Part shown: piece after piece, positions 784 through 56,129 of the stretch
Layout of the letters: each line of letters starts with the position of its first letter
Position numbering within the stretch: the first letter of the stretch is position 1
NCBI GenBank assembly: GCA_964373805.1
Contig: CAYJWF010000002.1
Location: forward strand, 13,861 to 77,860
Origin: an uncultured Planctomycetia bacterium
GTDB taxonomy: Bacteria > Omnitrophota > Gorgyraeia > 1-14-0-20-64-10
DNA length: 64,000 bases
Reading direction: 5' to 3'
Notes under the pieces: model-generated
Told to the model about the DNA's origin: nothing
The model's database searches: none
Seen by the model: the letters and a program-made list of their open reading frames with translations, nothing else
Program-made: the position numbers and the translations under genes

Positions 784-1060
784 TTAGGCTGTTGCGGAGT
801 GATTTGTTAGCGCTACGTTAGCAGGGACCAGGGAACCAAAAACCAAGTCGTCAAGCCTCCGTCCCATCTCTCCCTGTGCATCCGGCAACAGGTGCCCGTA
901 GACGTTAAGGGTGGTGGCCACCGAAGCGTGGCCAAGCTGATTCTGAATGAATTTTACGTTCTCCCCCTGGGCGATCAATAGCGCAGAGAAGGTGTGCGCA
1001 GGTCGTGGAATCGGATCCGACGTAATCCCGCCATCGCACCGGAGAACTTGCGATAATCAC
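784..1060 (-). pseudogene. Tyrosine recombinase (phage integrase) C-terminal remnant, frameshifted and N-terminally truncated
   Basis: Frame 1 (784..978) encodes IAQGENVKFIQNQLGHASVATTLNVYGHL (integrase box II with catalytic Tyr); adjacent frame (975..~1040) encodes GLRRIRFHDLRTPS (HxLR box). The two are consecutive but in different frames; no N-terminal/core-binding domain present. Confidence 0.55.
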
Positions 1061-13875: not shown

Positions 13876-15483
13876 TTACACGTCAAAATACAGATAGAAC
13901 TCGTACGGATGGGGTCGGAGCTTGACCTTCGGAATCTCCTGCCGCTTGTACTCGAGCCACACCTCGATCACGTCCTTGGTGAAGACGTCCCCTTTAAGGA
14001 GAAAGGCGTGATCCCTTTCCAAGGCGTCTAAGGCTTCTTCCAGTGAACCGGGCACCGTTGGGATCTTGGCCGCTTCCTCCCGGGAGAGCTCGTAGGTGTT
14101 CTTATCCAGAGGCTGACCCGGATCGATCCGGTTCTGAATCCCATCCAACCCGGCCATCAGCATGGCTGGGAAGGCGAGGTACGGGTTGCAGGAAGGATCC
14201 GGCGGCCGGAACTCCACCCGCTTCGATTTCGGATAGTCCACGTAGACCGGGATTCGGCAGGCGGCCGACCGGTTCCGGGCCGAATAGGCCAAGTTCACCG
14301 GCGCCTCGTAACCCGGCACCAACCGCTTGTACGAGTTGGTTGTGGGGGCCGCGAAGGCCAGGATCGAAGGGGCATGCTTGATCAGGCCCCCGATGTACCA
14401 CTTGCACAGCTGGCTGATCAAGGCATAGCCGTTCTTGTCGTAGAAGAGGTTCTTGCCCTCTTTCGCCAAGCTCTGGTGGGTATGCATCCCCGATCCGTTG
14501 TCGCCGTAAAGCGGCTTCGGCATGTAGGTGGCCACCTTGCCGTGCTTGCGGGCCACATTCTTGATGATGTATTTCAACATCAACAAGTGGTCGGCCATCT
14601 TGGTTAAGGAGGCGTACCGCATGTCGATCTCCGCCTGACCGGCCGTCGCCACTTCGTGATGGTGCTTCTCCACCGGAACCCCAGCCGCCCGTGCCGTATT
14701 CATGATTTCGCTGCGGATGTCCTGGAAAGTGTCGTGGGGGGGCACCGGGAAGTAACCCTCCTTGAATCGGGGTTTGTAGCCTAAGTTCGGCTTCTCCTCC
14801 CGACCGGAGTTCCACTCCCCCTCGATTGAATCCACATAGTAATAGCTGGAATTTTCCGTGGAATCGAAGCGGATGTCGTCAAAGATGAAGAACTCCGGTT
14901 CCGGCCCCCAGTAGCTGACGTCGGCGATGCCGGTCTTCTTAAGATACAACTCCGCTTTCTTCGCGATGTAGCGGGGATCCCGACTGTACGGCTGTTTGGT
15001 CAAAGGGTCAAAGATGTCGCAAACCAAGCTTAAGGTGGGAACGCCACACACCGGATCCAGCACCGCGGTGGAAGGGTCTACGAAAAGGTTCATGTCCGAC
15101 TCCTGGATCTTCTGGAACCCACGAATCGAGGAGCCATCGAATCCAATCCCATCCACCCAAATCCCTTCTTTGGAATTCTCGCTCAGTTCCGAGACCGGAA
15201 TCGAGAAGTGCTGCCACATCCCAGGCAGGTCGTTAAACTTAAGATCCACGACCTGGATGTTGTGGTCCTTGATCAGTTTAAACAGGCGCCGAATCTCGCT
15301 TTCGTCCACTTTCGCCGGACCGGCGGCCGCCTGGGTTTGAGTCGTCCCTTCAACACGCGCTCGGCTTCTTGCCATCGTTTCCTTTACCCTTTCCCTTTCT
15401 AGGGTCATTGTACCACCACGCCCTTGTGCCATGTCGCTCGTTCCTCCACTGTTCTTACTTCGGGTTACGGTTGATCGAGCCAT
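13876..15483 (-). CDS. glnA: Glutamine synthetase type I (GSI-beta-like); annotated start gives ~65-aa N-terminal extension, true start may be downstream
   Basis: [59 protein letters not shown]; adenylylation-loop region present. Confidence 0.8.
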
Positions 15484-15503
15484 AAAAAGGCAGCCTCCTA
15501 TAA

Positions 15504-15561
15504 GTTTTTGGCTGCGCCAGCAAACAGTCCAGAAAAGTCCCGAGCGGAGCGAGGGGCCTCC
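15504..15561 (+). repeat. Family-1 ~58-bp repeat element, intergenic copy (glnA-glnK spacer)
   Basis: GTTTTTGGCTGCGCCAGCAAACAGTCCAGAAAAGTCCCGAGCGGAGCGAGGGGCCTCC. Confidence 0.75.
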
Positions 15562-36920: not shown

Positions 36921-39900
36921 TTACACGCTAACCTTGGCCAATTCCTTCAGGTGGTCGGCGAGTTTGTTGAGACGGATGCCGTAGAAGGACTCGACCTCAG
37001 ACTGTGAGAGGCCCTCTTCCAATCCGGCCAGATTGCCGAGGATTCGCTTGAGCACAAAAGGGAGGTCGCCCATTGGAAGATGGGTAACCGTAATCGGAAC
37101 TCCGCGCGATTGGAGGAGTCGATTCAGAGCCTCAGCCCCATCCTCGGTGTCCAAATATCCCATCCGTCCAGCACCGAGGAGAGCCAGCGAACCGGCAGCT
37201 TCTTCCAGCCCCCCTGCTGCCAAAAGGACGCTGGGGTGATCCGCGTACGAAGGTGCCTCCGGGCCAATGACAACGAGGAACGGACCCAGCGCCGGCACCT
37301 GAGCCTTCAGGCGATCCAGGAATCCGATGAGTTCTGGCCCATCGGTTTTTAGCCCACTTGGCCCAATCCCGATCAAGGGCTGGGTTTTAAGTTCCGTCGC
37401 CAGGACCCGAGCGATCCGGACCATATCCTCCTCCAATCCAGCACTTGGTTTCCACTCATCGGGAGAAAAGGTCTGAATGCCGTCTTTGACCTTGACCAGT
37501 ACGGTGTCAGACTCTGGGTCATAGTGAATGGTCGTGGGTTCATTGAGCGCTTTACTCGGCAACTCCGCGGGAGGCTCGGTCGCCATATCATAGACGCGGA
37601 GCTTCTCCCGGTCATCGGTCACAAACAGGAGCTTTCGATCAGAAACATAGGCCATATCGCCAGTAAACCTGTATTCTCCAAAAGGCTCCCCAATCTGCTC
37701 TCCCGTCGTCGCATCAAAGCGGAGTAAGCGACAAATCGAAAGCTGACCAGGAAGATCAGGACCGACGGGGACAAGAAGGGTGTTATCATCCGCATCATAG
37801 ACAACCACGCTAGGGTTCAATGTGGAAATCGTTGGAGCTATCTCCTGTCCGGTTTCTGGGTCAAAGGTCCGTATCTGACTAACGAAGGCCACGAAGAGCC
37901 TCCGGTTTCGTAAATCCTGAGCGACGTCATTCACAGCCTCCAGAGAACGTACCGGAATGTTCTTGATCAGTTCTCCGGTCTCTCCTTGAAATAGCCGAAT
38001 CTCCCGCGTATTCTTAAATATTCCGGAAACTCCCTCCACCAGGATATCCGTATCCGGATCGTAATCTGCCTTGCGTAGCGTCACAACCTGCCGAACGGTC
38101 TCGGAAGGTTCCATTCTCTTTGGCTTGAACCATGGAGCAGCTTCTCCATTGGTCAGCTTCTCCAAAGCCTCCAATTGCGTCCTCACTTGGCTCAAAATCG
38201 GCTCCTCCAGATGCTGACTCGGTTCAACTCCCAGACCGATCAGCCGACCGGTCAGCTCCGCTAGTTTGGTGTCGTCCGACCCCAACCAGTCGGCCGGATT
38301 ACCACCGTAGAGGCTCATGGCATGCACCGCCCGCTGCGGCTTGGAACCCCTATCGACAAATTCCCGACGACCCCACCGAATCAGGGCTGCTTTAGAGATC
38401 GGTGGCCTTCCAGAATAAGGAGAAAGCGACAGAGAAGAGGCGTTACTGATTCTCTCCATAGCCTCCTTGAAAGCAGGGCCCGCGTGCCTTAAGGCTCCAT
38501 GGACATGTGGCCAATCAAAGTGATGTGCCAAAAGAATTAAGTTCTCTACCGCCAAGATATCCCGGCGCAACAGCCTGGGAGTCGACCGGAGCCACTGGGT
38601 AGTCTCGTTAAGTTTCTGATCGGCATACTCCACATTCGTAGGACCGTATCGAGGTCTTTCCAAGATTACACGCAGTTCATCCGACAGCTCTTCCAGGCCG
38701 GTCTTAGGCTCCGTTGGTGGATCGGGTGGGACTTGGCCTCTGAGTTGCGCGATCTCTTCATCCACGAGGCGCTCCACATCCGCTGGAGCTGCGCCTGGCT
38801 GTACCCCACGCTGCACCAAAGCCTCCACGTACCGGTCTATGGGGCGAAGCTGGGCGTTGGTATCCAGCTCTTCCATGCGGACCATCTCCACATTGGAAAA
38901 ACGCCCTTTAAGCAACCGCTCCGTCTGAAAGGCATGCATTCGGCCTCGGGGGACGACCATGACTGTACTTTCAGGTTCAGGATCTTCTTCCAGATACATC
39001 AAGGCCTTCAAGGCTGAGATCAGTTCCAGGCCGATCTGAACATCGTCCCTCTGGTAAGCGCTGGCTAGTTTTTCCTGTGCAGCATGAAGCAGATCGGCCT
39101 TCACCTGGGATTCAGCGGAAGGGTCCTTCACCTGTTGGAGAGCCAGATTCTCCCGCTCACGGGCCAAGAGAAATCTCCACCAGGATTCAAAGGAGGGTTC
39201 CTCCCGTAACGGGACGACGTTGATCCCTCTCTTCTGCTTCTCCACCAGAATCTCGAACAACCGGCGGTTCCAATCGGATGGAATAGGCGGATTAAACGAT
39301 GTCGACCCGGCCCGGATCTGGCTCACCCAGCCATCCATGAACTCGTTGACTCCTTCCATCGCCTGATGAAACGCCGGACGAACGATTTGGTCCACTCCCT
39401 GGGGATCCCTCCTAGCCGCCGCGATCAGATCTCCTGGTTGAAGGCCGGCGATCTGAAGCAACTCTGTCAGGAACGGTCCACCCACTTCCAACGGGACGAC
39501 CAGATGTTTGACGCCTGGTCGGGCACTCAAGAAACCATCCAACCGCTTTTTGAACTCCTCCAGCACCTTCATGGACAAGGGATCATCTCCATGCAGCAGG
39601 AAGCCGGCCAGAACCGGAATCTGAGAGATCCTTGTGGTACCAAGACCCGTTTGGGCAATCAACCACACTGGCCTAAGCTGTGGGAAACTCTGAACAAGCT
39701 GCCGAAAAAGTCCAGCCTCTAAAGTAGTGGGATCTTCGTGACGGTGGTGAGCTACCTCCCCTGCAACCAAATCGACCAAACGGGATAGGCTAAGAGGCGA
39801 ATCGGCAGAAATGTAAAAGTTAACCCGATTATCTTCAGGATCACCCGGCTTGGTGTACCTTACGACAGACAGCGCGTTCTTTCCATGCGAATCGCGATGG

Positions 39901-42900
39901 GTGACGACAGAACCTCTCGGATCGGTCACGGGAATAGGGTCTTGGAGGATGGCCCTAAATCTGTAAGACTCCCCATACCCTGTATTTGGATCCTCCGTAG
40001 ATAGATACTGTGAGCTGAGCCAATTTCGGAGAACAATCTCAATATCTTTAGGAGTCAAACCAGCCCAGTCATCTCCCAAAGTGGCAGGAGCTCCCCTGGT
40101 TTCCTCCTCCGGTGGGATCGGTTTCTCTAGCTCAGCCTTAATCTTGGCCAGCGCTTCCTCGGTTGGGAGTATATCGGCTGGGATCCCCAGACCGATCAGC
40201 CGACCGGTCAGCTCCGCCAGTTTCGTGTCATCCGACCCCAACCAGTCGGCCGGCTTGCCGCCGTAGAGGCGCATCGCCTGCACCGCCCGCTGGGGCTTGG
40301 TCCCTTTTCCAAACTCTTGACGACCAGAACGGATGAGCTCCGTCGAAGTGGGTTCCTCCTCCAGACCGGAGGCGGGGCCGGCGCTTAACCAGGTCAGGAG
40401 ACGGTCCATGCGGGGATCGCTGTAAAGATCCCCTGGCATGGCGATGGGATTGCTGTTGGAATCAAGCCGTTGCCATGCCAGAGCTCTCTGGAAGGTACTC
40501 CGCAATCGGTCGTCCGGCTGACTCAAGAAGGCATCCACCACCTCCAGGAACTGGGCCCAGCTCTGGCTCGTGGCCAACCGGTAGAGGTGATCCTTGAGCT
40601 GCTCGGTGGACAACCGTTGGGGAAGGTCAGGAAAGGAACCGGTGAGAACCAGCCCCTTTTGCGTGTCGGTTGGAGCGGGAAGGTGCCGCCCCAGGGCGGC
40701 TGCCTGAATGGTTTTAGCTTGGGAGTCGGTCTCTCTGGAAAAGGCCTCTAAGAGAGCAGGCACCAGTTGAGGCGATAAGGAGAGGTCCGAGCCTAAGCCC
40801 AGCTTGGCCGCCTCTCTCCGAGCAGCCACGTCTGGATCCGTTATCTTGGCGATGAGGGTCCTGAGGGCTGCTTCCGGAGAAGGGTTTACCTGGATATCGA
40901 GTTTGGCATCTTGAAGGGCCTTCCGGATCGTCTCGGGTTCCCCTTCCTTCAGGGGAACGTAGGTTCGCAGGATCAAATCGATCAGAGGAACGGATTGATC
41001 GGGCCTAAGGCTTAAATTCCCGACAGCCGCCTCAGTCAGGCGCATGTCGGGCGGCTCATACAGCTCCCCCTGTCGGAATAAGGGACGCAACACGTTGGCG
41101 GCCTTGACCACACTCCGGATGGCTTCCTCAGGAATCGTGGGATGGTCCTCGCGGAGGATCGCCACCTCATCGTTCTCCTCCGGATAACCGTAGCGATGGA
41201 TCGCCCAGCGATCTACAAATTCAGCGGAAAGCTCGTATACCTCATACGGCGGCCGAGGGGGATTCATGTTCAGACCCACGACCGCCCCCTCCGGTAAAAC
41301 AAACTCCTCGCCGTTGTCCATGAGGACTCTGCGCTCAGCCAGGAAGTCATTGAAGGCGGCCAACGTTCCTGGCAGGGCTTTGTTCCCTTCGTCCCAAACA
41401 ACGATGGGCGGACCTTCTCTCGCCACTCTGTCCGGCCTGAGGTAGGCCAGTGGTAAGGAATCTCTCCAGAGGGTCTTTCCCTTCTCGTACCATCGGATCA
41501 CCAGCATGTCCCGGACCTTAAAGTCCTTGCTCATTCCGAGGACGATGAGGTTCCGTTTTAAGGTCCTGGCCAAAATCTCCATAAAATAGTTCTTACCGGT
41601 TCCGGCATCTCCAATGTTCAGGAGGTGTTCTCCTAACGCCACCGACTTGAGTAGATCTTCCAGTTTCCTGAGGTTCCCGGCACTCTTCCGGAACAGCTTG
41701 GTGGGAATTAACCCTCCGGTTCCAGTGGCCAGGGAAATCCGGACATCCGCCGGCCAGTGAGGATACCGGATGAAACTCGAGGAATCGGTCTGAGGGTCCG
41801 ATGGAACCACGATCGGCTCCACAGCAAGAGACCTGGCGGCTGGCCAAGGCTGACCCGCAGGCCAGTGGGTCGGTTTAAAGACCCGCTCCAGGAGGTCCTG
41901 GACGTGTTGTTCCATCCCATCCCCATGGACCGTATCGTCCACCCAGTAGCTTTTGAAGAAGATATCCGGTATTCGGGCCAGATCCTCCGGAAAGGTATCG
42001 AGATGCCGAACCATCCGGACTAAGGCTCGGGTGGTCACCACAAAAGGAGATTCTGCCTGCCGGGCATCTGCCCGAAGCAACCGGGCCGCCTCCAGGAGGC
42101 CATCGATGATTCCATCGGAGACCACCCAATCTCCATCGGTGGTCTTGCGCCTCCTCTGCTGGCGAAGGATCTGCCGCTCGTGTTCTTGAAAGAGCGCAAA
42201 TTCCAGGTTGTCCTTCCCATCGGCCAGTTTCTCCGATGGATAATCCAGTCGGAGCTTGCCGAAACGGGTGAGAAACTCACCCGGAAGTTGCCTCCCCTTA
42301 TACTGCATGAGGGAAACAATATCCCCTTCCGGCGGGTTGATCGCTGCGACGAATCGGCTGTTGGGATGGAACCTGGCCACCCGGTCATGGAGAACTTTGA
42401 CTCGGCTTTGCAAGGGATCGTTCAGTTCCGCCAGAACGGAGCCTGGTGCCCGGTTGACTTCCGATAGAATCACTAAATCCCCCAATTCCCCTCCTTCCAC
42501 GATATCCGAGGTGGACCATTCCATTTCCTCTCCTCGATGGGAGAGGCGCTCGGTGACGTTGGGCTTACGCATGTTCTCGTTGAAGGTCACCACCCGAACC
42601 CGGGTTTGGTGAACGTAATTCAGCAGTTGGGAGCGGACCGTTGCCAACGTGGAATCGGTCATCTGGGTCGCCTTCCCTTGCAGCCACCCCCGATAGATCT
42701 CCCAGATGTATCGGGCGTAGAGGCTCTTGCCGATCCCGGCCTGCCCGATCAACAGGAGGTTGTTCCGAGTCGGATGCCGCAGGACATCCCACATCTGTTT
42801 CAGCTTCAGCACCGTCCAGTCAGAGAGTTCTATCTTCAGAGTATTCGGCGGATCGATCCGGATCCCATCGATCTCAAACCAAGCCTGGTCCCCTTGCCTG

Positions 42901-48991: not shown

Positions 48992-49313
48992 CGGACGTCT
49001 CCCGTTTAGTCTCTTGCGGAGGTTTACCCCCTTGAAAGATCGTCAAGCGCACCAGCGACTCCATGGAAGCAATCGTCTTCCTCAAAGAGGAGATTTCCAA
49101 AGGGGGCACCTCAAAGTTCACTTTGAGATAGATCCCTTCGGTCACCCGCTTGATTCGGTAACTGAGTCTCCTTTTCCCTAAAGGGGTGCACCCCAAAACC
49201 TTTCCCCCGAGACGGAGCACCTGTTCGCCAAACTGATGGGTGAACTCCGTCAGAGCCTGTTCACTCAAATCGGGGGCCGCGATGATCAGCGCCTCGTACT
49301 CTCTCATGGGCAT
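48975..49313 (-). CDS. rpsF: 30S ribosomal protein S6
   Basis: MREYEALIIAAPDLSEQ...; rpsF-ssb-rpsR-rplI order. Confidence 0.85.
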   Translation of the reverse strand: MPMREYEALIIAAPDLSEQALTEFTHQFGEQVLRLGGKVLGCTPLGKRRLSYRIKRVTEGIYLKVNFEVPPLEISSLRKTIASMESLVRLTIFQGGKPPQETKRETSDGKSE

Positions 49314-49320
49314 TTTCTCT

Positions 49321-49956
49321 CTAAACCCTCACCTTCTGGTTAAAAAGATTCATGGCAGCGGTCAAACCTTTCTGGACCCAAACCTCACAGGCCAACCCGG
49401 CGGCCCGTAAACCTTCCTCCAAGGGCTTCTTCTCCTCCAGACGGAAACGCCCCAAAACAAAAGGGGTCAACTCCCTTTTGCTTTTGGCTGCGCCAGCGAC
49501 CAGTCCAGAAAAGTCCCGACCATCAGCGAGGGGCTCCTCCAGGCCTGGATGGGCCCCAATCCCCACTCGGAGCCGCGCCACGTGATCGGAGTCTAACGCC
49601 TCTAAGATGGAACTTAACCCCCGATGCCCGCCGGCCGATCCCTGGCCCCGCAGTCGAATGGCGCCTAAGGGGAGCCGAACGTCGTCGCAAACAACGAGCC
49701 AACCGGACCGATCCAACTTCCATCGACGGACGAGACACCCTACCGCCTCCCCTGAGGCGTTCATCCAGGCGCGCGGCTGAACCAACCGGACCGAATGACC
49801 GTCGACAACCCCTTCCCCTACCCGACAGCGGCAGAGGGATTTTTTTAACGGGATCGACCATCGCTCCGCCAGTCGACCAACCACCGAAAACCCAACGTTG
49901 TGTCTCGTGCCGGCGTACGTCCTTCCAGGGTTGCCCAGCCCGATGATCACCTTCAC
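49321..49956 (-). CDS. pth: Peptidyl-tRNA hydrolase carrying an in-frame 20-aa repeat-element insertion
   Basis: MKVIIGLGNPG...TRHNVGF...GGHRGLSSIL...RLRVGIGAHPG; between GIGAHPG and FVLGRF lie 27 residues instead of the ~7 in E. coli Pth, encoded by repeat copy 49480..49540. Confidence 0.85.
   Translation of the reverse strand: MKVIIGLGNPGRTYAGTRHNVGFSVVGRLAERWSIPLKKSLCRCRVGEGVVDGHSVRLVQPRAWMNASGEAVGCLVRRWKLDRSGWLVVCDDVRLPLGAIRLRGQGSAGGHRGLSSILEALDSDHVARLRVGIGAHPGLEEPLADGRDFSGLVAGAAKSKRELTPFVLGRFRLEEKKPLEEGLRAAGLACEVWVQKGLTAAMNLFNQKVRV
49480..49540 (+). repeat. Family-1 ~58-bp repeat element, copy inside pth CDS (in-frame, translated as EEPLADGRDFSGLVAGAAKS)
   Basis: GCTTTTGGCTGCGCCAGCGACCAGTCCAGAAAAGTCCCGACCATCAGCGAGGGGCTCCTCC. 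Confidence 0.75.
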
Positions 49957-50729
49957 CCCTTCTGCTCTTGCGGCTTCTGCTGGGCTTTGGCCTTCTCCTT
50001 TTCTTTCGCCTTCTCCTTCGATTTTTCCTCAGCCTCCTCGGCGGCAATCTCTTCCGGCTTCTTCTGCTTCAAGACCTCCGGCTCTGCCGCCTCAGCGGGA
50101 GCCTCTGCCGCCGGCAACGCCTCTTCTTTCTTCGGCAAGACGCAGGCCGCCACCGGCAACTCCGGATCGGTGATCAACCGAATCCCCGGCGGTAAGGAAA
50201 CGGCCTTCACCAAGAGGGTCTTCCCCAAGCTTAAACCGGACACCTCCACCAGAATCTCGGGCGGAATCTCCGTAGGCAGACACTCGACCTGGAGATCCCA
50301 CCTAAGGTGCTCTAAGATCCCGCCCTCTTGCCTGACCCCGAGCGGCTCCCCTTTAAAGACGAGGGGAACCGTCACCGTAATCCTCTTGGTCAACGAGACC
50401 CGGTGGAAATCCACGTGGATGATCTGATGAGAAACGGGATGATGCTGGAGTTCCTTAATCAACACGGAGCCTTCCTTGAGCCGGCGTTCCCCACGGCCTT
50501 GGAGCTCTTCTTTAAGCTTCAGGGTGATCAAGACGTTCCCCCCGGCCTTGGTGCGCAGGATTTTTGAAAACCCCTTGGCTCCTACACGAATGGAAACCGA
50601 AGGCTCCTTCTCGCCGTAGACGATTCCCGGTATCCACCCCTCCCGGCGCAAGGACCGGGCCGCCCTCTTCCCACCGCCTTCTCGCGCCAACCCCTCCAAG
50701 ACGACTTGACTCGACGGCTTAGGGTTCAT
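49953..50729 (-). CDS. rplY: 50S ribosomal protein L25/general stress protein Ctc with Lys/Glu/Ala-rich C-terminal extension (start at MNPKPSS, not the upstream in-frame Met at 50849)
   Basis: GGKRAARSLRREGWIPGIVYG L25 N-terminus; ATG at 50727..50729 preceded by AAAGGAG and overlapping prs stop (TGATG); upstream 40 codons are repeat-derived. Confidence 0.8.
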   Translation of the reverse strand: MNPKPSSQVVLEGLAREGGGKRAARSLRREGWIPGIVYGEKEPSVSIRVGAKGFSKILRTKAGGNVLITLKLKEELQGRGERRLKEGSVLIKELQHHPVSHQIIHVDFHRVSLTKRITVTVPLVFKGEPLGVRQEGGILEHLRWDLQVECLPTEIPPEILVEVSGLSLGKTLLVKAVSLPPGIRLITDPELPVAACVLPKKEEALPAAEAPAEAAEPEVLKQKKPEEIAAEEAEEKSKEKAKEKEKAKAQQKPQEQKG

Positions 50730-51802
50730 CAACGCCTCCGAAGCTTCTCCTTTGTTTTTGGCTGCGCCAGCGGCCTGTCTAGGAAAGTGCCGCGCATCAG
50801 CGCGGCCTTCTCCATGGGTTCCTTGGCCAAAGGCGGGGCTTCCTCCCAATGGTCGTGAAAGAGAACGCTGAGCGACTCCTCCTGGTGGATCCGCCGGATC
50901 GCCTCCGCGAACAAGCCGGCCACGGAGAGAACCTTGACCTTCGGCATCCCTCGCCCGGCAGGGATGGGAATCGTATCGGTGACCACCAACTCCTTTAAAG
51001 GGGAGGCGGTCAACCGTTCCTTGGCCGGACCGGAAAGAACCGCGTGGGTCACGGCCGCGAACACCTCCTTCGCTCCAGCCTCCTTCAAGGCCCGCACCGC
51101 TTCCACGAGAGATCCGGCAGTGGAGACGAGGTCGTCCACGATGAGGGCGTTCTTGCCGTTGACCTCGCCCATGATGTCCATCACCTCGGCCTCCTCGTGA
51201 CTGATCCGACGTTTATCCACCATCGCCAAGGCGGACTGAAGGCGCTTGGCGTAGGCCCGGGCCATCTTAATGCCCCCCACATCCGGGGAGACCACCACCA
51301 GATCCGGAATCGGCCGCTCGGTCGTGAAGTATTCCACGAAGGTGTTCACCGCGAACAGATGATCCAAGGGAATGTCGAAGAATCCTTGGATTTGGCCCGC
51401 GTGCAGGTCCATCGTCAACACCCGATCGGCCCCGGCCACGGTAATGAGATTGGCCACCAGCTTCGCCGTGATCGGCACGCGCGGTTGGTCCTTGCGATCC
51501 TGGCGGGCGTAGCCATAGTAAGGAAGAACCGCCGTGATGCGCCGAGCCGAGGCCCGTTTCAACGCGTCGAGAAGGATGAGCAGCTCCATGAGATGGTCGT
51601 TCACCGGGGGTGCCGTCGGTTGGATCACAAAAACGTCCAGCCCCCGCACGTTCTGTTGGATCTTGACCCGAATCTCCCCCTCGCTAAAGCGCCCCACCAG
51701 CGCCTGACCCAGGGGAACCCCCAGCGCCTCGGCGGCCCTCGCCGCAAAAGCGGGGTGGGCGTTTCCACAAAAGAGAACCGGCGGATCCGTCTTAACTCCC
51801 AT
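50729..51802 (-). CDS. prs: Ribose-phosphate pyrophosphokinase with ~35-aa C-terminal extension read through a repeat element
   Basis: Prs motifs (VVSPDVGGIKMARAYAKRL, DLHAGQIQGFF); normal end near ...SLSVLFHD; tail MEKAALMRGTFLDRPLAQPKTKEKLRRR is encoded by repeat copy 50754..50813. Confidence 0.9.
   Translation of the reverse strand: MGVKTDPPVLFCGNAHPAFAARAAEALGVPLGQALVGRFSEGEIRVKIQQNVRGLDVFVIQPTAPPVNDHLMELLILLDALKRASARRITAVLPYYGYARQDRKDQPRVPITAKLVANLITVAGADRVLTMDLHAGQIQGFFDIPLDHLFAVNTFVEYFTTERPIPDLVVVSPDVGGIKMARAYAKRLQSALAMVDKRRISHEEAEVMDIMGEVNGKNALIVDDLVSTAGSLVEAVRALKEAGAKEVFAAVTHAVLSGPAKERLTASPLKELVVTDTIPIPAGRGMPKVKVLSVAGLFAEAIRRIHQEESLSVLFHDHWEEAPPLAKEPMEKAALMRGTFLDRPLAQPKTKEKLRRR
50754..50813 (+). 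repeat. Family-1 ~58-bp repeat element, copy at 3' end of prs (in-frame)
   Basis: GTTTTTGGCTGCGCCAGCGGCCTGTCTAGGAAAGTGCCGCGCATCAGCGCGGCCTTCTCC; contains hairpin GCCGCGC-ATCA-GCGCGGC. Confidence 0.75.
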
Positions 51803-55127: not shown

Positions 55128-56129
55128 CTACCCTCTCGTGGCGGCAACGAACATCTGCCACCCCGTCTCTCTCTCTCTCAAACGCTGGGCAACCCTCTGC
55201 GCCTCTTGTTCAGTGGCGCAGAGGGCCAGCACCGTCGATCCGGACCCCGACACCAAGGGCCGCGAATGGGTAACCCTTCGAATCGTCGCCTTCACCTCCC
55301 GGACGACCGGGTAAAGGGCTTCTACGGTGGGCTCCAAGGCATTAAAGAGGAGCTCCTCAACTTGACGCACGTGGTTCTCTCTTAAGGCGCGGCAGATGAG
55401 TGTAACATCGGCCCCAGGGGCTGTCAAGCCTGTCCTGAGCGAGGGTGCATCCCAGATTCGTCGGCGCTTTTGGCTGTCATCCTCATGAAAATGAGGATCT
55501 GATTCCCACTTTCGCGGGAATGACAACCGATAAACTTGGGATGCACCCCTGAGCCGAGCCGAAGGGGTGAAAGCCTGGTAAACGGCTCTCGTTGAAATGG
55601 GAACGTTGGGGTATACCAAAAGATGCCACAGGGACATCGGAAAAGTAACCGGTTCCAGCTCCTCGCCCCTGCCCCGGCCCAACGCCCAGGGCCGTTGGGC
55701 AAGAAAGAAAGGGACGTCCGAACCGAGCTGCCGGGCGATGCGATCCAGTTCAGCCTCCGACAATCGGTTGGAACTTAGTTGCTGGAGGGCCAACAGGGTG
55801 GCGGCGGCGTCGGAGGAACCTCCGCCCAATCCGGCCGCGACTGGAATCTGTTTTTTAAGTTGAATCCGAATCCCAAGGGAGTCGTTGGTCGCCTGTCGAT
55901 AAGCGAAAGCCGCTCGGACCGCCAGGTTGGTCCCGTCCACCGGAACTTGGGGGCTGTCGCAGAGGCATTCGATCCGGCCGTCCCCGGTCAACTCCACGGT
56001 GAGGCGATCGGCCAGATCGATCCGCTCAAATAAAGTGACGAGGCTGTGGTAACCGTCCGGGCGTTTGCCCACCACATCGAGAAAGAGATTCACCTTGGCG
56101 TACGCCGGAACGCTCACCGCTCGCTTCAC
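55128..56129 (-). CDS. ispE: 4-diphosphocytidyl-2-C-methyl-D-erythritol kinase with an in-frame 38-codon insertion derived from a MITE-like element
   Basis: GHMP kinase motifs (KVNLFLDVVGKRPDGYH, PVAAGLGGGSSDAAA); 333 aa vs ~285 typical; extra segment LSFPRKWESDPHFHEDDSQKRRRIWDAPSLRTGL maps to 55441..55554. Confidence 0.8.
   Translation of the reverse strand: MKRAVSVPAYAKVNLFLDVVGKRPDGYHSLVTLFERIDLADRLTVELTGDGRIECLCDSPQVPVDGTNLAVRAAFAYRQATNDSLGIRIQLKKQIPVAAGLGGGSSDAAATLLALQQLSSNRLSEAELDRIARQLGSDVPFFLAQRPWALGRGRGEELEPVTFPMSLWHLLVYPNVPISTRAVYQAFTPSARLRGASQVYRLSFPRKWESDPHFHEDDSQKRRRIWDAPSLRTGLTAPGADVTLICRALRENHVRQVEELLFNALEPTVEALYPVVREVKATIRRVTHSRPLVSGSGSTVLALCATEQEAQRVAQRLRERETGWQMFVAATRG
55441..55547. 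mobile_element. 107-bp MITE-like element with 13-bp terminal inverted repeats (GGGTGCATCCCAG / TTGGGATGCACCC) and 7-bp flanking direct repeat CCTGAGC (55434..55440 and 55548..55554); inserted in-frame in ispE
   Basis: TIRs 12/13 complementary; internal hairpin ATCCTCA-TGAAAA-TGAGGAT; element plus duplication = 114 bp = 38 codons. Confidence 0.65.

Follow-up and report, generated by a model that had tools for sequence, protein, structure and literature searches.

For a 64,000-nucleotide stretch of a contig from an uncultured bacterium of the Omnitrophota (hereafter the window, meaning the whole stretch of DNA analysed), we examined a short insertion inside ispE, the gene of 4-diphosphocytidyl-2-C-methyl-D-erythritol kinase, and found that it is very probably a miniature inverted-repeat transposable element (MITE) derived from insertion sequences (ISs) of the ISKra4 family, which are prokaryotic Mutator-like DDE elements, and that it sits in frame in the linker of the enzyme, where it is most likely tolerated. 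The open reading frame (ORF) of ispE is intact and encodes 333 aa, with Pfam matches to both GHMP_kinases_N (5.6e-16) and GHMP_kinases_C (6.8e-10). Solved IspE structures match its product at 1e-38 to 5e-31, its named homologues are the IspE proteins of Candidatus Omnitrophica, all the invariant IspE columns are kept in our alignments, including one of 50 sequences, and the predicted fold is confident, so that both domains, the conserved residues and the structure all identify the protein as IspE. The homologues are mostly 285-296 aa long, which agrees with the proposal of the initial annotation that a MITE-like element had lengthened this protein without closing its reading frame. IspE is a studied antibacterial drug target, and we take ispE, as a gene of the methylerythritol phosphate (MEP) pathway, to be essential in this organism.

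The element proper measures 106 nt and is bounded by imperfect inverted repeats (Table 1). Its boundary was set from 240 ends of related elements found in other genomes: the base directly outside the 11-mer used for searching is G in 228 of them and the next base outward is random, which places the edges of the element at GGGTGCA...TGCACCC. The length is thus one nucleotide short of the 107 bp first proposed, whereas the inverted repeats described at that time (12 of 13 positions) do hold, with GGGTGCATCCCAG at 55443-55455 and its inverted partner, carrying 1 mismatch, at 55536-55548. Within the 22-nt arms the outer 12 nt pair perfectly, and three of the four mismatches between the arms are also present, as read from the aligned sequences, in a second Omnitrophota copy (locus L002, see below); on our reading of the alignments these shared mismatches would be a trait of the subfamily and not decay. 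The 121-nt stretch at the locus forms a long outer stem bearing two hairpins, one of which is the internal hairpin of 8 bp that had already been pointed out; its fold is much stronger than those of shuffled versions, at -59.9 kcal/mol as RNA (z = -6.7) and with z = -4.75 as DNA. The 106-nt element encodes no transposase and is too short for one, and three of the six reading frames through it are open. A search of Rfam returned nothing at the gathering score, the sole match around the element being a chance snoRNA (E = 0.3), and the element is not a known RNA. Elsewhere in the window a sequence resembling the terminus, GGGTGCACCCCAA at 49184-49196 (1 mismatch), was considered as a second copy and dropped: it has no partner arm, and a search of the window with the 13-mer, allowing 2 mismatches, gave no more matches than in shuffled sequence.

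A scan of species-representative genomes with the pattern GGTGCATCCCA-N(67-97)-TGGGATGCACC returned at least 119 loci that share the termini of the window element, distributed over the phyla Omnitrophota, Bacteroidota, Chloroflexota and Cyanobacteria. The hosts are an Omnitrophota genome (L002), Chitinophagales (Ferruginibacter), Saprospiraceae, Caldilineaceae and many filamentous cyanobacteria, among them Hormoscilla, Nodosilinea, Phormidesmis and Leptolyngbya-like genomes, and single genomes can carry many loci: one Caldilineaceae chromosome has at least 16, a Ferruginibacter assembly at least 22 and Hormoscilla at least 13. The termini are identical across lineages, while the interiors are alike within a lineage and unrelated between lineages. 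Among 120 copies, an exact flanking duplication of 8 bp was found in 47 and one of 9 bp in 20; in the 8-bp register, 18 more copies have one mismatch and 8 have two, and in a control with a shifted flank no copy came within 2 mismatches. In most copies of the family the duplication is of 8 or 9 bp, and not of the 7 bp first described.

The closest relative of the window element among these copies is the Omnitrophota copy L002:1281-1383, which is 85% identical to the full window element, lies in the same orientation when the latter is read on the minus strand, and has unrelated flanks. The similarity takes in the outer repeats as far as the GGG/CCC ends and goes no further. This copy has a perfect 8/8 duplication, CCTGATAA, and is intergenic, directly past the stop codon of the neighbouring gene.

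In the window itself, the 8-bp flanks agree at 6 of 8 positions, and none of the 120 control comparisons with a shifted flank came within 2 mismatches. The duplication had been given as the 7-bp CCTGAGC, and this direct repeat is indeed present at 55434-55440 and 55548-55554 with a spacing of 114; it is, however, the imperfect 8-bp duplication shifted by one base, since it borrows the last C of the element. The earlier sum for element plus duplication is unaffected, as 106 + 8 gives the same 114 nt, or 38 codons. The sequence is explained just as well by a 9-bp duplication, CTGAGCCGA, from which one C was later lost, and the two mismatches in the 8-bp duplication may indicate that the insertion is not entirely recent.

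Importantly, the same termini are found on complete transposons. Four ISKra4-family ISs carry near-identical termini, three of them with clear duplications of 8 or 9 bp (Table 1): a 1311-bp element in Hormoscilla (L105), whose transposase matches NF033572, the NCBIfam model of ISKra4-family transposases, and three annotated elements from cyanobacterial plasmids. Guérillot et al. (2014) class such transposases as prokaryotic Mutator-like and describe for the ISKra4-type family a conserved terminal base, inverted repeats that range from 18-39 bp and direct repeats that measure 8 or 9 bp (PMC3942029). The window element agrees with this published description in its inverted repeats, its terminal base and its direct repeats (PMC3942029) and encodes nothing, and we therefore assign it to the MITEs of the ISKra4 family. 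Its closest relatives are probably the short ISs of 1.2-1.3 kb such as ISOni2 and ISNsp5. It likewise has general features of a MITE, being shorter than 500 bp and without transposase, with terminal inverted repeats, a duplication of fixed length and ends in common with an autonomous element. In the literature that we searched, whose coverage is incomplete, no published MITE of the ISKra4 family was found.

The partner elements showed some further features of their own. The annotated coding sequences of the three plasmid ISs are 1067 nt long, which is no multiple of three, as would be expected with the -1 frameshift known from the ISMich2 group. In L105 (2889-3960) the transposase is laid out in two frames, a short N-terminal ORF being followed by a 271-aa ORF that matches model positions 107-421, a layout in keeping with the -1 frameshift that has been reported for this group. 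ISOni2 lies at L128:1158-2336, on plasmid pOSC7112.02 of Oscillatoria nigro-viridis PCC 7112, with its duplication ATTGACAG, between a large ORF with an immunoglobulin-like (Ig) domain and a large ORF with rearrangement hot spot (RHS) repeats, which suggests that it split one giant gene.

Alignments placed the insertion, as had been proposed, between the two domains of the enzyme, in the linker that joins the N- and C-terminal GHMP-kinase domains and corresponds to residues 175-184 of Thermus IspE (1UEK); the length of this linker varies naturally, by 0-16 extra residues among homologues. The closest orthologue (protein P0002) is encoded at locus L001, a Logan contig of 2.8 kb on which ispE and spoVG are arranged as in the window, and is 90% identical to the window gene in protein and 92% in DNA. 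It is without 46 residues (138 nt) exactly at the insertion point, both in the protein alignment (A1) and in the DNA alignment (A2); the missing stretch comprises the 114-nt insertion and 24 nt of native loop. Removing 55443-55556 in silico (114 nt, the element and one copy of the duplication) leaves the loop FTPSARLRTGLTAP, which resembles YRPSTELRAGLTHP of homologue P0004. The restored sequence, TTC ACC CCT TCG GCT CGG CTC AGG ACA GGC TTG ACA, encodes FTPSARLRTGLT and aligns with YRPSTELRAGLT of P0004, so before the insertion the window gene had an 8-residue loop such as is also found elsewhere among IspE proteins. That native loop is likewise missing in L001, which may have lost these 24 nt separately or all 138 nt in a single deletion.

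Could the segment simply be a lineage-specific loop, grown by ordinary evolution or local duplication, with an incidental inverted repeat and no mobile element at all? The natural length variation of IspE in this linker speaks for such growth. Nevertheless, at the DNA level the segment has 85% identity to an element that lies between genes, amid unrelated flanks, in another Omnitrophota genome, and at least 119 elements elsewhere have exactly its 12-nt termini. Moreover, no other IspE in the alignments bears the segment, a word-index search with the 46-aa insert peptide gave zero candidates, and among 1.84 billion representative proteins there was a single match, a spurious one to a repetitive protein, and no other protein with the insert in this frame. 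We give loop growth almost no credence. An assembly artefact, in which reads from a repeat element were wrongly joined into ispE, deserves to be weighed as well, since the source looks like a metagenome-assembled genome, the identical protein (P0001) being encoded on a single NCBI contig of 109 kb, and repeats are a known cause of assembly errors. We regard it as very improbable: ispE is continuous on both flanks, the junctions show the 8-bp duplication pattern of the family, which a chimeric join would not make, the length keeps the frame, and removal of the segment restores the loop of a homologue.

We then turn to the effect on the protein. An AlphaFold2 model built from the 50-sequence alignment reached a mean predicted local distance difference test score (pLDDT) of 89.3 and a predicted template modelling score (pTM) of 0.86, with values above 94 everywhere except in residues ~190-236 (41-56), which lie between helices 180-186 and 242-250. 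The gained segment, of ~38 residues rich in charged ones, is thus predicted to form a disordered loop. Between the window ispE and L001 the ratio of nonsynonymous to synonymous substitutions (dN/dS) is 0.28, with a dS of 0.18; the ratio averages both lineages and the time before the insertion. If the gene is essential, as assumed, an insertion could have persisted only by keeping the frame and falling in a loop that tolerates it, and we infer that IspE is most likely still active and that the 38 residues would be a tolerated, disordered passenger loop and not an adaptation.

On the other hand, the insertion may have inactivated ispE, the open frame being a coincidence or the event very recent, with a second ispE supplying the function or the function being dispensable. 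Indeed, a 38-residue insert between the domains, together with an mRNA hairpin of -59.9 kcal/mol, could harm the enzyme or its translation, and since three of the six frames through this element are open, an open frame is not rare for it and is weak evidence alone. We consider inactivation unlikely, because all 333 codons are intact and every invariant IspE residue is kept, the dN/dS against the orthologue is 0.28, the insert occupies a length-variable loop while the rest of the fold is predicted with high confidence, and no stop or frameshift has accumulated even though the mismatches in the duplication may point to an insertion of some age.

Copies that lie in frame within a gene are rare in this family: of 121 copies, that of the window alone is clearly situated in a conserved gene. 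The other in-gene candidates were set aside: in the long ORFs that span them, the element precedes the probable start codon or falls at the very end of the C-terminus, and the remaining ORFs are not convincing genes. Among 236 family flanks, an insertion preference for the region 13-17 bp upstream of a sigma-A -35 box, as in the promoter-targeting group of ISKra4 elements, was looked for, and no enrichment at 13-17 nt was found. Beside the window element, a sigma-70-like site occurs inside ispE on the minus strand (55399-55427: TTGACA, 17 nt, TACACT, with TG before the -10), its TTGACA 15 nt from the element end. The promoter-like hexamers are native ispE sequence, present in L001 too, and given the lack of promoter targeting across the family their position next to the element is probably a coincidence. 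In the Caldilineaceae chromosome OZ244877.1, the immediate flanks of the copies L028:3220-3321 and L042:850-951 are identical, those of L040:4032-4133 are similar, and extra terminal-repeat arms lie 213 nt away from the L028 and L042 copies, which suggests that these copies belong to a bigger repeated unit or to arrays of nested or tandem MITEs.

The interior of the window element is composed of a second kind of repeat, a 49-nt module of two inverted 24-nt hairpin units that resembles repetitive extragenic palindromic (REP) sequences and their hairpin-forming doublets (REPINs). It has the properties by which these are recognised, namely imperfect palindromic units of 20-40 nt that occur as inverted pairs and at many sites. 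Across six sequences the pairing of hairpin 1 is kept through two compensatory changes. A metagenome scan with one 24-nt unit gave six contigs, in four of which the two-unit module stands alone, without GGGTGCATCCCA ends. In a plasmid collection, the unit GTCATTCCCGCGAAAGCGGGAATC occurs exactly in Azospirillum and Sphingopyxis replicons and near-exactly at no fewer than 40 places in Neisseria gonorrhoeae records; a Photobacterium replicon has it at 16 places. We take the Neisseria copies to be those labelled dRS3. The 24-nt unit was seen repeated in Legionella and Francisella replicons as well. The window subfamily thus carries a REP/REPIN-like doublet repeated independently in distant bacteria.

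These observations raise the question of whether the inner double hairpin is the mobile unit, moved by an enzyme of the REP-associated tyrosine transposase (RAYT) type or of the IS110 type, with the outer repeats being local sequence. The solitary modules of the four contigs, the many repeats of the unit in unrelated bacteria and the compensatory changes in hairpin 1 speak for such mobility. The similarity between the window and L002 ends, nevertheless, at the outer GGG/CCC, the duplication flanks the outer ends and not the module, and other subfamilies have the same termini around quite different interiors. No RAYT-type or IS110-type gene was seen, and no search aimed at either was made. We find mobility of the inner module highly improbable; the double hairpin is a separate module that is not needed to explain transposition, and the data fit a MITE bearing it as cargo or as a nested insertion. 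A more ambitious idea is that a Mutator-type MITE took up a hairpin doublet known from two or more phyla and spreads it, also into coding sequence, and that the loop of IspE was kept as useful. The data cover the chimeric anatomy and the in-frame persistence of the window element, and as a whole we hold this idea to be decidedly doubtful.

Taken together, we favour a MITE of the ISKra4 family inserted in frame into the ispE linker. A transposase supplied in trans would recognise the inverted repeats of ~20 bp that begin with GGGTGCATCCCA, as suggested by the family; the element would be inserted at a staggered cut of 8 and at times 9 bp, repair of which would make the flanking duplication. It landed in the variable linker of ispE, where 114 nt and a frame without stop left the gene open. 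Several observations weigh against this account. Within the 64-kb window there is a single copy of the element, and tblastn found no ISKra4-family transposase there; the exact subfamily with terminal repeats counts two copies among those listed, the window element and L002. The duplication is imperfect in the window, L001 does not provide a clean empty site, as it is without 138 nt rather than 114, and the dN/dS is an average as stated above.

In-frame insertions of MITEs are well documented, for example in Rickettsia (PMC10969869). The event described here is of a known kind and leaves the understanding of MITEs unchanged. It adds a case of transposon-driven protein lengthening in an uncultivated phylum and, as an insertion experiment made by nature, reveals a permissive site in IspE. 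A MITE superfamily of at least four phyla, tied to ISKra4 (Mutator-like) transposases, is defined by these shared 12-nt ends, and copies of such MITEs can be miscalled as small ORFs or gene extensions.

Table 1. Features of the ispE insertion, copies of the inner module and ISKra4-family elements with the same termini (window positions unless a locus is named).
Feature	Position	Strand	Sequence or ends	Remarks
ispE (4-diphosphocytidyl-2-C-methyl-D-erythritol kinase), carries the insertion	55128..56129	minus		ORF list; intact, 333 aa
Stretch absent from L001	55429..55566	minus		138 nt = 46 codons (residues 189-234): 114-nt insertion + 24 nt native loop; alignments A1, A2
Target-site duplication, copy 1	55435..55442		CTGAGCGA	6/8 match to copy 2; family makes 8/9 bp
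MITE proper	55443..55548		GGGTGCATCCCA to TGGGATGCACCC	106 nt; boundary from 240 family ends; 85% identity to L002:1281-1383
Terminal inverted repeat, arm 1	55443..55464	+	GGGTGCATCCCAGATTCGTCGG	inverted repeat I2, 22 nt, 82% complementary
Inner module, two inverted 24-nt hairpin units	55476..55524		GTCATCCTCATGAAAATGAGGATC plus / GTCATTCCCGCGAAAGTGGGAATC minus	49 nt; REP/REPIN-like
Hairpin 1	55479..55498	+	ATCCTCAT-GAAA-ATGAGGAT	inverted repeat I5, 8 bp, 100% complementary
Hairpin 2	55502..55521	minus	ATTCCCGC-GAAA-GTGGGAAT	one of the two hairpins of the fold
Terminal inverted repeat, arm 2	55527..55548	+	CCGATAAACTTGGGATGCACCC	partner of arm 1
Target-site duplication, copy 2	55549..55556		CTGAGCCG	6/8 match to copy 1
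Solo module, metagenome contigs	L121:244-294; L122:3353-3403; L123:2638-2689; L126:1605-1655 and 1034-1057			without terminal inverted repeats
IS of Hormoscilla	L105:2670-3980		GGGAGCATCCCAGTTTTGCC / GGACAAAACTGGGATGCTCCC (GGGAGCATCCCAG...)	1311 bp; duplication TAAAAAAA, 8 bp; NF033572 (ISKra4 family) 4e-73
ISOni2			GGGTGCATCTCA	duplication ATTGACAG; annotated ISKra4-family, cyanobacterial plasmid
ISNsp5-like element			GGGAGCATCTCA	duplication TTTGATGAT; annotated ISKra4-family, cyanobacterial plasmid
Dolichospermum IS			GGGAGCATCCCA	clear duplication absent; annotated ISKra4-family, cyanobacterial plasmid

The window contains other repeats. One of them, the family-1 repeat (~60 nt, core TTTTGGCTGCGCCAGCnnCCnGTCnAGnAAAGTnCCG), occurs at 15496-15555, 49472-49531 and 50746-50805 and is without GGGTGCATCCCA ends. 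The initial annotation had suggested its kinship with the ispE element from a shared motif, CTTTTGGCTG. The window has just two occurrences of this motif (expected 0.19; a count of 2 was reached in 4 of 100 shuffles), the common stretch of ~10 nt is not kept in L002 and family-1 has no matching termini, so we dropped the link, which looks like chance. One family-1 copy is located within the C-terminal portion of an ORF of 211 aa, presumably a peptidyl-tRNA hydrolase, to which it may add residues in frame. Another falls in the overlap of the minus-strand ORFs 50729-51802 (which we read as ribose-phosphate pyrophosphokinase) and 49953-50849, and a third is just upstream of a 535-aa ORF (13876-15483) that we take for glutamine synthetase. 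The window also holds a direct repeat of 115 nt (38230-38344 and 40186-40300; 91% identity), its copies 1956 nt apart.

Three known systems offer comparisons. The Rickettsia palindromic elements (RPEs), the Correia elements and the enterobacterial repetitive intergenic consensus (ERIC) sequences are likewise short, mobile palindromic repeats found in frame in genes, with a peptide compatible with the fold (PMC10969869). RPEs insert in genes routinely, whereas the window family does so rarely, and host phylum and partner transposon differ. The likeness to RPEs is one of behaviour only. REP/REPIN doublets and the dRS3 repeats of the neisserial intergenic mosaic elements (NIME) share with the inner module the arrangement as an inverted pair of 24-nt hairpin units, a resemblance in sequence only; unlike them, the window doublet sits within a gene, between the inverted repeats of a transposon. 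The closest parallel is with the ISKra4-family ISs (p-MULT 4; short ISMich2-type elements such as ISOni2 and ISNsp5), which have in common with the window element the termini GGG(T/A)GCATC(C/T)CA, inverted repeats of ~20 bp and 8- or 9-bp direct repeats, and whose sampled members are cyanobacterial, a phylum that also hosts the short elements. The window element differs from them in measuring 106 nt and in having no transposase, the ends being all that the two share.

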